Below, one piece after another: positions 8,225 to 10,696 of a stretch of DNA of 64,000 nt. The notes beneath the pieces are model-generated. The model did not search any database and was not told where the DNA came from. It saw only the letters and a list, made by a program, of their open reading frames with translations. How positions within the stretch are numbered: position 1 is the first letter of the stretch; each line of letters opens with the position of its first letter. This DNA is from Oligoflexales bacterium (GTDB taxonomy: Bacteria > Bdellovibrionota_B > Oligoflexia > Oligoflexales > JAPPIL01). The DNA lies in assembly GCA_965215515.1 (NCBI GenBank), contig OZ244057.1, positions 992,001-1,056,000 of the forward strand, in the 5' to 3' direction. The position numbers were made by a program, and so were the translations under genes.

Positions 8225-9796
8225 TTACTCAAGTAGTGCTGACATATCGATCTCGCCCTCTATCAGTTTGGGGAGGAGAGTGTCACGTAGGTGGGCAAGA
8301 TTTTTTGATTCTTGATCGAAATTTTTAACGAAAAAACTGTTCATCACAGTTTCAAAAACAGATATAATGGCACGTTCAGGAACTAAAATTTCGAGGCTTT
8401 TCATACTATTGCCCGTGATTTCTTTGAACGTGCTTCCCGTAGCAACAGCTTTCATCTTGTCAACATTAGCCTTAGACCACGAATACAAAAAATGACTTCC
8501 AAGACAACCTCTCGGAACTAGTGCTTTGAAACCCTGATTTGTGCATAGATTTTTCTCTGAGAAGGCAATATACCCGATAGGTGCTCTTGATGAAATAACC
8601 ACTGCTCCTTTGGGCATCAGTTTAGCACTAGATTTTTTCAAGCCTAGTTCGGTTATATCTGTTGCACCACAAGGAATATGTCTCCAACCCCGCGGTATCG
8701 CCCCCATCCCACTCTCCTCAAACTCATCAGGAAATAGCGAAGCAGTATGGGTGAGTGTGTCACGTTCGGTGCTACTCATGCTTGCAAGCCTTTTTGTGAG
8801 TGCCTCATCCATTGCCGAGAAATTTTCTACGAACTCGCGTGGACTGCACAGGGCAGCTATTACTGCCATCGCCGCCCGTTCCATAGGCAAGCCTGCCTCA
8901 TGTGCTAACTGCTTGGCATGCACAGGGTCAAAATCGACAAGCCACGACTTGAAGATGGCCTCAGCCATGTTTTCGAGGGTGGTGTTGATGCTTTTGTTTA
9001 ATTCTATTTTGTCGTCAAGCACACCCAACGAAGTAGAGATAGCTTCCTGTTGCTTTATCGGTGGCAATTTGACTCGTATTGTTTTGAATTTGTTAGTGGG
9101 AACTCTTTGTCTTCCTGAACTGCCTGTCATTTGTGCAATAGCGTATGGTTTAACCTGATGAGAAACTATCAGGTAGTAAACAAAATCAGGATGAGTGATC
9201 TTATCTTTGTTCCTCATCACAATAAATTCGGTAGAACCGTGTGCGGGGAGTTGACCTTTTGCTTTGAAACGGCTTATTTTCCCGTTTTCCAAACACGGAG
9301 TTATCCTAGCCATAAGGGTATCTCCATCGACAAAACGTGAACCACCCCCGTTAAAAATTTTTGTCTGTGTTGTTGCAACAATTTTATTTTCAGGCACTAA
9401 CATCTGCATATCAACACGAGGGTATAGTTCGCCTCTTAGGATTTTCACAGTTGGATTGATTTCTACCGCATCGTCAAGATACACCTCCTGCCAGCCACGG
9501 CGATAAAAAATCACGCCTTCGGTGTCGATATGTTCTTTGAAGGGCGGGTGGTCGATGGTGTGGTAGTTGACGACATCGCATAAGAAAGGCAACTCGCTGT
9601 CGTCGAGGTCACTGCTGATGTTGACTGCGGTCTTAAACGTAACATCTTTACCCTTGATGGCGAGGTCGATATCAGATGCCACACCATAGTTTCCCATCGC
9701 CCGTGAGCCGAAAATAAGTCCACGACTGACCTCTGGGTATTTTTGCAAGATTGCCGTAATTTCTGCCAGCTGTGCCTCACTCAATCCGAAGCGCAC
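8225..9796 (-). CDS. hsdS: Fusion: MntA-like nucleotidyltransferase antitoxin + type I R-M specificity subunit HsdS
   Basis: N-terminal GSRAMGNYGVASDID (GSx10DxD); then TRD1 (ARITPCLENGK, GSTEF, GSSGRQRV), spacer LDDKIELN..LENMAEAIFKSW, TRD2 (SSRAPIGY, NQGF, GSTFKEI) and terminal LRDTLLPKLIEGEI. Confidence 0.9.
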   Translation of the reverse strand: MRFGLSEAQLAEITAILQKYPEVSRGLIFGSRAMGNYGVASDIDLAIKGKDVTFKTAVNISSDLDDSELPFLCDVVNYHTIDHPPFKEHIDTEGVIFYRRGWQEVYLDDAVEINPTVKILRGELYPRVDMQMLVPENKIVATTQTKIFNGGGSRFVDGDTLMARITPCLENGKISRFKAKGQLPAHGSTEFIVMRNKDKITHPDFVYYLIVSHQVKPYAIAQMTGSSGRQRVPTNKFKTIRVKLPPIKQQEAISTSLGVLDDKIELNKSINTTLENMAEAIFKSWLVDFDPVHAKQLAHEAGLPMERAAMAVIAALCSPREFVENFSAMDEALTKRLASMSSTERDTLTHTASLFPDEFEESGMGAIPRGWRHIPCGATDITELGLKKSSAKLMPKGAVVISSRAPIGYIAFSEKNLCTNQGFKALVPRGCLGSHFLYSWSKANVDKMKAVATGSTFKEITGNSMKSLEILVPERAIISVFETVMNSFFVKNFDQESKNLAHLRDTLLPKLIEGEIDMSALLE

Positions 9797-10212
9797 TCGT
9801 CATACTCCTGCTTGAAATAACTGCGCATGTCACGCAGCACAGGGAAAAATTTTTCACAGGCAAAGTGCAATACATCTTGTAAAATCTCACCGCTGTAGAC
9901 ATGTGCCGCTTTGTTCCTGAATGTCAATGCCTCTATCCATACCTCGCCATCACGAATGTAGCCGTCTTTGTAGGCTCGGCGGATAAGTTGTTTTGAGGTG
10001 TAGGTCGTGTCGCCGTTTTCTTGCAGATAGTCAGAGAGCACATCTTTAGCCAGCTGAAAAGTAAACTCAAAGTGCTTTATTACACCAGTTTTTTCCAGAT
10101 CAGACAGCTTATCGACATGCTCGACACCACTCTTGATAGCCGCAGCAAAGTGCAGGTACGCCTTGTCAAAATTTTCAAATCGCTGTTGCCAGCGTGCTTT
10201 CTTCTCAGCCAT
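9781..10212 (-). CDS. HEPN RNase toxin, HI0074-like (copy A)
   Basis: RWQQRFENF, GVIKHFEFTF, Rx4H motif RNKAAH followed by VY; overlaps the MNT start. Confidence 0.85.
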   Translation of the reverse strand: MAEKKARWQQRFENFDKAYLHFAAAIKSGVEHVDKLSDLEKTGVIKHFEFTFQLAKDVLSDYLQENGDTTYTSKQLIRRAYKDGYIRDGEVWIEALTFRNKAAHVYSGEILQDVLHFACEKFFPVLRDMRSYFKQEYDECASD

Positions 10213-10228
10213 GCTCGTTATCCCTCAC

Positions 10229-10696
10229 TCAATCCGAAGCGCACTCGTCATACTCCTGCTTGAAATAACTGCGCATGTCACGCAGCACAGGGAAAAATTT
10301 TTCGCGGGCAAAGTGAAAAACTTTTTCCATGATTTCTTCTTTGTAAATATGCACAGCATCGTTGCGAGCTTCTAACGCCTTAATCCACACCTCACCGTCG
10401 CGGATATAGCCCTCTTGAAAAGATTTTCTGAGAACATACTTAGGGCCTCTGATTTCATCTTGGGGAAAACCAACGTGCAGTAGGTAATCCCTGAGGACGT
10501 TCCTTGCCAGTTCAAAAGCAAGCTCAAAACGCTTCACAAGGGTTTCTTTCAGGACGTTTTTATCTCCCCCCGTGGCATTGACGATGCCCTTGCTGACTGC
10601 ATCCGTGCCATCCCAACTAACAGCCGCAGCAAAGCGCAGGTACGCCTTGTCAAAATTTTCAAATCGCTGTTGCCAGCGTGCTTTCTTCTCAGCCAT
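10229..10696 (-). CDS. HEPN RNase toxin, HI0074-like (copy B)
   Basis: Same termini as copy A; LVKRFELAFEL, GPKYVLR, Rx4H motif RNDAVH followed by IY. Confidence 0.85.
   Translation of the reverse strand: MAEKKARWQQRFENFDKAYLRFAAAVSWDGTDAVSKGIVNATGGDKNVLKETLVKRFELAFELARNVLRDYLLHVGFPQDEIRGPKYVLRKSFQEGYIRDGEVWIKALEARNDAVHIYKEEIMEKVFHFAREKFFPVLRDMRSYFKQEYDECASD

Follow-up and report, generated by a model that had tools for sequence, protein, structure and literature searches.

How can two adjacent toxin genes be nearly identical in DNA at both ends and strongly divergent in between, and does such an arrangement work as a switch? This question is raised by a locus on contig OZ244057.1 of an Oligoflexales bacterium, whose genome consists of this one contig of 2,180,710 nt (93.9% complete); all coordinates refer to the analysed window, a stretch of 64,000 nt of the contig. 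Four genes of interest are encoded on the minus strand in the order hsdM, HEPN-B, HEPN-A and MNT::hsdS. The gene for the type I DNA methyltransferase subunit HsdM (10708..12354) forms a frame of 548 aa in which the true start may be located further in. It is followed by two HI0074-type HEPN toxin genes, HEPN-B (10229..10696; 155 aa, motif RNDAVHIY of the form Rx4HxY) and HEPN-A (9781..10212; 143 aa, motif RNKAAHVY), and by a gene in which an MNT antitoxin domain is fused to the specificity subunit HsdS (8225..9796; 523 aa, with matches to PF18765, PF01420 and PADLOC Specificity_I). The genes are tightly packed, with 11 nt between the hsdM stop and the HEPN-B start and 16 nt between the HEPN-B stop and the HEPN-A start, while the MNT::hsdS start is overlapped by the last 16 nt of HEPN-A. 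We consider it probable that the pair reflects recombination-driven concerted evolution of tandem toxin genes within a mosaic family and not a programmed switch.

The common start of the two genes covers codons 1-25 and is found at 10138..10212 in HEPN-A and at 10622..10696 in HEPN-B, both on the minus strand; according to repeat search and pairwise alignment, the two copies of 75 nt are 99% identical, with a single mismatch at 10151/10635. The common end (9775..9855 in HEPN-A and 10223..10303 in HEPN-B, again both minus) comprises 81 nt, which are all identical in the pairwise alignment and consist of the last 75 nt of the gene plus 6 nt past the stop. In HEPN-A these 81 nt contain the last 24 codons, the stop, and the GTG start together with the first seven codons of MNT::hsdS, and in HEPN-B they include a relic of the MNT start, from which an open reading frame of eight codons (10244..10218) runs into TAA. 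A unique spacer of 10 nt (10213..10222, minus strand) separates the end repeat of B from the ATG of A and matches neither the spacer between hsdM and HEPN nor the continuation of MNT. The alignments thus agree with the preliminary description of this DNA, which had reported ends of 75 bp (one mismatch) and 81 bp around divergent cores in proteins of 143 and 155 aa. The search for further copies of these 75- and 81-bp ends that it had proposed was run with blastn-short and returned none in the 2,180,710-nt genome, where the next best matches were 18 and 16 nt long; a third HEPN gene of this kind is also absent from the genome.

The contrast between ends and core is most obvious at the level of codons. 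In the core, 94 codons could be aligned (12 alignment columns being gaps, DNA identity 53%), of which 42 encode the same residue, and only 18 of these 42 (0.43) use the same codon. At the two ends, 24 plus 24 codons encode the same residue and all 48 are identical, four-fold degenerate sites included, for which P is about 2e-18 if the rate of the core applied. Hence, neither chance nor constraint at the protein level can explain the identical ends. In AlphaFold2 models the start repeat maps exactly onto helix 1 (residues 2-25 of A) and the end repeat onto the C-terminal two-thirds of helix 5, so that the variable part comprises the connector of helices 1 and 2, helices 2-4, the catalytic His/Tyr loop and the first third of helix 5. 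In B, the helix 1-2 connector carries an insertion of 12 residues, which is predicted to form an extra helix.

Derived residues point to a local origin of this identity. Both window copies share Glu3, Ala24 and Ala141, whereas the nearest A-type relatives P0001, P0035, P0037 and P0039 (89-90% identical) differ at all three positions, with A/N/D/N at position 3, D or E at position 24 and D at position 141. Among the three residues, the nearest B-type relatives P0017, P0031 and P0032 share Glu3 alone; they have Glu at position 24, and at position 141 either Asp (P0017) or an earlier stop. The mismatch at 10151 results in His21 in copy A, while Arg is found in B and in 26 of 26 aligned relatives; since His21 occurs in copy A alone, it represents a private change later than the homogenisation of the ends. 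The residue aligned to this position in the Legionella toxin is Gln21, for which PMC11586414 describes contact with the active-site loop of the other subunit. Furthermore, the ends differ by 1 in 156 nt compared to 6.5% divergence from the relative that carries only HEPN-A (see below), which makes the homogenisation much younger than the split from that relative.

These observations are consistent with the following scenario. An island of some 4.1 kb, gained by horizontal transfer, would carry a type I methyltransferase core (HsdM and HsdS) in which a HEPN/MNT toxin-antitoxin module is embedded, with A and B as two tandem and long-diverged versions of a HEPN RNase toxin. Their identical ends would stem from recent homologous exchange between the tandem copies, either by gene conversion of an older tandem or by replacement of one core via the conserved ends as homology arms. 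As direct repeats, the ends would also allow the pair to be reduced to one gene, A or B, through deletion by RecA-dependent recombination or slippage, and MNT would, by homology, silence each toxin by adding adenosine monophosphate (AMP) to the Tyr of Rx4HxY. We infer the mechanism of conversion as well as toxin activity, AMPylation and the control of both toxins by one MNT; the tandem form itself appears fixed in the sequenced population, and no dedicated switching machinery was detected in the island or in the genes next to it.

The collapsed forms do exist in relatives. The preliminary description had derived that recombination across the 5' pair leaves core A only and recombination across the 3' pair core B only, the latter still coupled to MNT-HsdS, with deletions of 448 or 484 bp. 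This geometry is right: a crossover between the start pair removes 484 nt and yields hsdM-A-MNT, and a crossover between the end pair removes 448 nt and yields hsdM-B-MNT with an intact MNT start. Both single-copy forms were found among contigs of the marine metagenome run X1, shorter by exactly 484 and 448 nt. One of them, with a length of 13,094 nt, differs from the window at 94 of 1,454 nt (identity approximately 93.5%); position 10137 is followed immediately by 10622 in this contig, which runs hsdS/MNT, core A and hsdM, is exactly 484 nt shorter and encodes the A-type gene only (protein P0035). In the other, which is 18,672 nt long and 79-84% identical, the distance from the MNT region to core B is 310 nt compared to 758 nt in the window, corresponding to 448 fewer, and its B-type gene adjoins MNT (protein P0020, B-type throughout). 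With single-A and single-B relatives at hand, the arrangement is not invariant among relatives; it was invariance that the preliminary description had named as speaking against its reading. Tandem or double states probably recur in relatives as well: the chimera-type protein P0006 and the B-type protein P0017 come from contigs of equal size (15,904 nt), as do P0004 and P0032 (41,122 nt), an A- or chimera-type and a B-type protein.

Close relatives number approximately 35 in all and are available only as proteins predicted from metagenome assemblies. Protein searches with A and B among 5.8 billion clusters gave 25 and 24 matches, 29 of them distinct, to which cluster members added more. In the GTDB species genomes the best identity was 49% (best 80 of 187 relatives) and in the JGI metagenomes 47% among the matches listed (best 80 of at least 290 relatives), where the JGI contig of P0013/P0041 was not among the matches listed. 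Viral contigs contained no relatives, plasmids gave no DNA matches and 91 protein matches that were each less than 60% identical, and a DNA search of 41 related genomes returned only the genome of the window itself and one chance match of 27 nt. Within the own order, a HEPN match was obtained in 24 of 95 genomes, with 39% identity for the best one outside this genome.

An alignment of 28 proteins, comprising 26 relatives and both window copies, revealed that the family is a mosaic. Between the A and B consensus, the first 25 residues are 100% and the last 24 residues 92% identical, while the four inner blocks show 9%, 60%, 25% and 58% identity. The inner blocks of P0006 and P0007 are of types A, A, B and A, and those of P0008 and P0009 of types A, A, B and B; in P0010 and P0026, blocks 2 and 4 are of type B, whereas blocks 1 and 3 occur in a third form. 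To arrive at such a pattern, the types must have exchanged segments repeatedly, and the search for other cores between the same flanks that the preliminary description had recommended, conducted here on the proteins of the relatives, turned up these chimeras and the third block type. The tandem pair, the chimeras and the two single-gene relatives represent a compact natural series in which toxin segments are exchanged while the parts that fit the partner are kept.

Several relatives deviate from an intact gene. The closest B-type relatives P0017, P0031, P0032 and P0034 have Tyr at the position of the catalytic His (RNEAMYIY), P0031 and P0032 end four residues early, and P0028, P0029 and P0033/P0034 represent broken B genes; it seems that the B copy is decaying in several lineages. 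In P0038, a C-terminal HsdM sequence is joined to HEPN-A at about residue 27, and in P0027 a B-type HEPN continues from its helix 5 into the second half of MNT. Judged from these sequences, the two resemble products of in-frame deletions in operons of this kind.

In more distant HI0074 loci, the situation is different. Among 160 of them, MNT is present in 152, more than one HEPN in seven and the order HEPN-HEPN-MNT in only two, and none shows identical ends around a divergent core, which led us to reject the tandem HEPN as a common pattern. Moreover, neither hsdM nor hsdS was detected near these 160 loci (tblastn, 1e-4); hence, the restriction-modification (R-M) context is specific to this clade. 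The locus L123 contains two unrelated HEPN genes whose ends are not shared. At L061:4409-5145, in a record titled Anaerovorax odorimutans MAG, there is a plain tandem duplication of 437 nt (300 nt being 100% identical), with a truncated HEPN copy ahead of an intact HEPN-MNT pair and a family of 74-nt repeats around it.

Regarding the identity of the toxins, both match PF08780 (HEPN-A 88 bits, HEPN-B 85.3 bits, cut-off 31.8) and TIGR01987 (64.5 and 68.6 bits, cut-off 55.8), and the Rx4-6H catalytic motif is kept as RNKAAH in A and RNDAVH in B. The acceptor Tyr is located two residues past the catalytic His (Tyr106 in A, Tyr118 in B) in a column that is invariant in 28 and in 33 sequences. The AlphaFold2 models display an all-helical HEPN fold with a predicted local distance difference test (pLDDT) value of 90.1 for A and for B. 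With the B model, Foldseek returned the L. pneumophila HEPN toxin chains 8yuf/8xdj as best matches (template modelling scores 0.79/0.91), the top list being 8yuf/8xdj/8xeh and then 1wty and 1jog, and the family profile matched the L. pneumophila HEPN toxin 8xdj (139 aa) with an E value of 2.6e-27 over residues 1-134. PMC11586414 describes this toxin as an Mg-dependent RNase with Arg7, Arg11 and Arg17 lining the RNA cleft; its dimer is formed by helices 1 and 2 plus the Tyr loop and its tetramer by the helix 2-3 loop plus helix 3, while binding to MNT occurs through helices 3 and 4, the key residue being Arg73, and MNT AMPylates Tyr105. HEPN-MNT is an established toxin-antitoxin pair with AMPylation (PMC11586414; PMC4621449). 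In our family Arg7, Arg11, Lys74, His104 and Tyr106 are conserved and align with the RNA-cleft, MNT-contact (Lys74 corresponding to Arg73 of L. pneumophila), catalytic and AMPylated residues. Lys74 is surrounded by residues of the block that varies most.

The MNT domain itself comprises residues 1 to approximately 100 with the GS...DID motif and matches PF18765 with 56.6 bits over residues 12-100. Against the NCBIfam model MntA_antitoxin it reaches 32.9 bits, below the cut-off of 60, and it is therefore not an MntA equivalog. A complex predicted from two B chains and MNT(1-105) scored 0.52 compared to 0.27 for the best control, which weakly supports their interaction. The mark used for this score was met by 116 of 157 solved complexes and by 2 of 215 mismatched pairs, but a score of at most 0.60 together with the mark was found in 18 of the 157 solved complexes and in both mismatches. 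The runs agreed in 100% of the contacts, with a partner pLDDT of at least 86; since a like complex (8xeh) has already been solved, the pass may only reflect likeness to that structure.

With these structural relations in mind, both toxins might be kept for joint work, be it a heteromeric HEPN assembly or a toxin with a regulatory pseudo-toxin, in which the shared helices act as docking parts. This fits with the L. pneumophila structure, where helix 1 belongs to the dimer interface and the region corresponding to the variable helices 2-3 forms the tetramer and MNT interfaces (PMC11586414), and also with P0017, P0031, P0032 and P0034, which have Tyr instead of the catalytic His while their presumed A-type or chimeric partners on the same contig keep it. 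However, Rx4HxY is kept in both window copies, loci with A or B alone exist, so that neither needs the other, and the broken B genes (P0028, P0029, P0033/P0034) look like decay of a redundant copy. We therefore regard joint work as doubtful, although it does not exclude concerted evolution by recombination.

It could also be assumed that the ends are identical without any recent exchange, because selection acts on the nucleotide sequence itself, for example where it couples translation to that of MNT, folds as RNA or is bound by a protein. The protein ends are indeed near-invariant across the clade, the MNT start is situated inside the end repeat, and A/T palindromes are present in both repeats. 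However, selection on the MNT start cannot act on the relic behind HEPN-B, where a stop follows after eight codons, and the 48 same-residue codons are identical throughout, four-fold sites included. Furthermore, Ala24 and Ala141 are common to the two copies and absent from the nearest orthologues, and several end positions vary among relatives. Scans for regulatory sites likewise remained at chance level, with nine promoter-like sites compared to 5.3 +/- 2.5 expected and six terminator-like sites compared to 5.1 +/- 2.0 expected, for which one operon is the simplest reading. Selection at the nucleotide level is hence an unlikely cause of the identical ends.

The preliminary description went further and proposed a swappable cassette. 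Taken as a programmed or high-frequency switch, by which a population regularly settles on one of the two toxins, or takes up new cores, for the purpose of bet-hedging, this proposal can refer to the direct repeats of 75 and 81 nt in the correct geometry, to both resolved forms in relatives and to the mosaic family. These same data, the mosaic and the resolved relatives, sustain its evolutionary part, the exchange of cores between constant ends. An operating switch is very unlikely, however. Profile searches detected no recombinase domain in the island, which contains only hsdM, the two HEPN genes and MNT::hsdS, or in the next genes out. The repeats are direct, so that a deletion is irreversible without an outside donor, and neither further copies of the ends nor silent cassettes exist anywhere in the genome. 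The resolved forms belong to organisms that are 6.5% and approximately 20% diverged and not to subpopulations. The features by which phase-variable and shufflon loci are recognised, inverted repeats or silent cassettes together with a site-specific recombinase, are thus not those of this locus.

Contigs derived from public sequencing runs bear on the same point. Five such runs contain the stretch, with no RNA run among those listed; four of the five come from one study of 'organism A' and comprise 99% of its words. Besides the marine run X1, we used three of these four (X2-X4), which may be the source of the assembly itself and are hence the right material to recognise a co-assembly. As a true tandem predicts, contigs of X2 and X3 are interrupted by the repeats, which leaves core A (356 nt), a junction (70 nt) and core B (392 nt) as separate pieces, where the junction contig spans 10183-10252, i.e. 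the start of A, the spacer and the end of B. The depth of core A, junction and core B was 43.0, 42.8 and 42.7 in X2, compared to 45.2 and 32.7 in the flanks, and 6.5, 6.5 and 6.42 in X3, compared to 5.41 and 6.24 in the flanks, while the contig of the 81-nt repeat was about twice as deep (84.4 in X2, 14 in X3 and 162.7 in X4). The junction piece is not among the rows listed for X4. Overall, both cores, the junction and the flanks are equally deep in three of three samples of the only study that holds the locus, although such contigs are blind to rare variants, and a joint that skips 448 or 484 nt is not among the rows listed for X2-X4, with the same restriction. That the assembly stitched two strain alleles of a single HEPN gene into a tandem, as the allele-like structure with shared ends might suggest and as the preliminary description had considered, is hardly credible, given that a 70-nt contig of single-copy depth crosses the unique spacer in X2 and X3, that the 81-nt repeat is doubled in depth in X2, X3 and X4 with both cores at flank depth, and that the genome is one contig of 2.18 Mb.

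Nevertheless, some points weigh against concerted evolution of the pair as described here. Logan contigs are composed of 31-letter words, and a crossover within a longer repeat makes no new word, so that rare deletions are invisible and only a large deleted subpopulation (roughly more than 15%) is excluded, by depth alone. For the relatives, we infer that A and B share one contig from equal contig size and not from seen adjacency. Local homogenisation is indicated by shared derived residues at the protein level and not by synonymous sites of orthologues, and the direction of conversion, from B to A at the start (Glu3) and from A to B at the end (MNT start), is only weakly indicated. In addition, the spacer is not accounted for by simply duplicating the locus as it stands: a tandem duplication of the present A locus was rejected as sole origin, as the 10-nt spacer is unlike the hsdM-HEPN spacer. 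The early end of the B-type proteins P0031 and P0032 favours an older tandem with later conversion of the end of B. Seven of eight bases of the spacer (10213-10222) are similar, by eye, to the codons for Y-D-E that closely precede it within the end repeat, and it may be a remnant of the older end of the B gene.

The most interesting element of the locus may be its context, a type I methyltransferase that lacks HsdR and carries an antitoxin on its specificity subunit. The window hsdM matches PF02384 (365 bits), PF12161 (84.6 bits) and PADLOC MTase_I (616 bits), and reaches 185.6 bits with TIGR00497, which is under the cut-off of 242.75; it is the sole type I-like methylase gene of the genome, where a second N6_Mtase match is located in a frame of 1,359 aa elsewhere. 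In the fusion protein, residues from approximately 100 to 523 correspond to a full HsdS with two target recognition domains (TRDs), as PF01420 matches in two stretches and PADLOC Specificity_I aligns residues 101-518 with positions 3-397 of 403. The same MNT::HsdS fusion is present in 15 proteins including that of the window, which range from 297 to 557 aa, belong to several lineages and vary in their TRDs, while GSRAMG...SDIDL is invariant in 15 of 15. This set includes distant proteins (23-39% identity) and one NCBI record named 'restriction endonuclease subunit S'; three of its members come from contigs equal in size (5,890, 54,138 and 986,576 nt) to those of HEPN proteins of the clade. In the phylum of the window, an MNT match was found in 27 of 131 genomes, and all 26 matches outside this genome are stand-alone frames of 102-145 aa.

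An hsdR gene was not found in the single-contig genome at its completeness of 93.9%, where TIGR00348 gave 17.5 bits at best compared to a cut-off of 284.55. Two candidates for HsdR were rejected: the sole PF18766 (SWI2_SNF2) match is an SNF2/SWIM helicase, and the HSDR_N match is a protein of 395 aa with HSDR_N_2 and RAMA domains by profile match but without helicase motor (L004:1315-2502, genome position about 1,369,822-1,371,009). Judged by gene content, hsdM and hsdS together encode a type I methyltransferase with no restriction subunit, and without HsdR this does not amount to a complete type I R-M system. As the antitoxin is covalently joined to the specificity subunit and the restriction subunit is absent, a coupling of DNA recognition to toxin release becomes testable in an operon of four genes. 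One can speculate, as a tentative and rather improbable extension, that MNT::HsdS makes the methyltransferase serve as antitoxin platform in a device for abortive infection, in which an AMP-transferase borne by the M2S complex would silence HEPN RNases as interchangeable effector cartridges. The first and last helix might then stay constant as both docking parts and homology arms, lineages under pressure from phages might accumulate, exchange and lose toxin cores with no need for a dedicated recombinase, and the tandem of A and B might be either an intermediate of this exchange caught in the act or a deliberate doubling.

The whole system is carried by a low-GC island (8000..12500), with a guanine-plus-cytosine (GC) content of 0.41-0.52 compared to 0.55-0.60 in the flanks, and the contig of the relative ceases to match the window at 12365. 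Together with the lack of close relatives in the scanned DNA collections, the low GC content marks the island as foreign to the host lineage. It is bracketed by paralogous genes at 7036-8022 and 12383-13357 (both on the minus strand), the products of which are 35% identical over 284 aa (E 4e-50), contain many Cys residues and a conserved W-P-x-C-W-L-S-S-R-L-S stretch, and have no Pfam or NCBIfam match. These paralogues were rejected as repeats of the island, because the protein identity is 35% and no common DNA repeat exceeds 14 nt. Genes for DnaN-like and DnaA proteins are located at 4139-6951, about 1 kb from the island, and the sign of the GC skew flips near 8000, which places the foreign island near the likely origin of replication. 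A tRNA gene was not detected within positions 1-20000 of the window.

Compared with known recombining loci, the HEPN pair shares single features with each of them. Phase-variable type I hsdS loci such as the pneumococcal ivr/tvr make use of inverted repeats and of partial hsdS copies that are silent, in most cases with the help of a site-specific recombinase, and they reshuffle reversibly, which results in mixed populations. Here, alternative gene segments in a type I locus are likewise exchanged via short shared repeats, but the repeats are direct, the two genes are complete, a recombinase is absent and a mixture was not seen. In polymorphic toxin loci of the contact-dependent inhibition (CDI) and rearrangement hotspot (Rhs) types, only one end is constant, each toxin tip has its own immunity gene, and orphan cassettes lack starts. 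A constant region serving as homology arm for the exchange of variable toxin parts is common to those loci and ours, in which, however, both ends are constant, both genes are complete and one antitoxin would serve both toxins. Gene conversion as in tufA/tufB renders paralogues of one genome closer to each other than to their orthologues over the converted tracts; unlike in that pair, conversion would here be limited to the two ends, and the cores are about 47% different in DNA.

HEPN RNases in R-M loci are a long-standing observation of comparative genomics, and their control is mostly unknown. Such genes within R-M loci, for example PrrC-EcoprrI, are established according to Anantharaman et al. 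(2013; PMC3710099), which also presents the idea that the R-M complex keeps the HEPN RNase silent until a phage disables the complex and notes fusions of R-M-linked HEPN domains to nucleases, helicases and ATPases, not to methylases. The terms 'HsdS' and 'specificity subunit' do not occur in the text of that paper. An MNT-HsdS fusion, a mosaic HEPN clade or a divergent toxin pair with identical ends was not found described in the full-text literature searched, which comprised main texts and few subscription journals; the sole match joining HsdS, nucleotidyltransferase and HEPN fusion was PMC12839542, on BREX. As in PrrC-EcoprrI, the gene for a HEPN RNase resides within a type I locus, yet PrrC is an ABC-ATPase::HEPN fusion beside a complete hsdMSR, whereas the present locus combines minimal HI0074-type HEPN proteins with an MNT fused to HsdS, and no hsdR was found. 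A close resemblance in toxin and antitoxin is to the type VII HEPN-MNT module of L. pneumophila (8xdj, 8xeh, 8xem, 8yuf; PMC11586414), with which the locus shares the HEPN subfamily, Rx4HxY, Arg7/Arg11 and a short MNT directly downstream, although the identity of the window toxin (B model) to the solved toxin is only about 25%. Unlike that module, the locus described here provides two divergent toxin genes for one MNT, and this MNT is fused to HsdS within an hsdM-hsdS operon.

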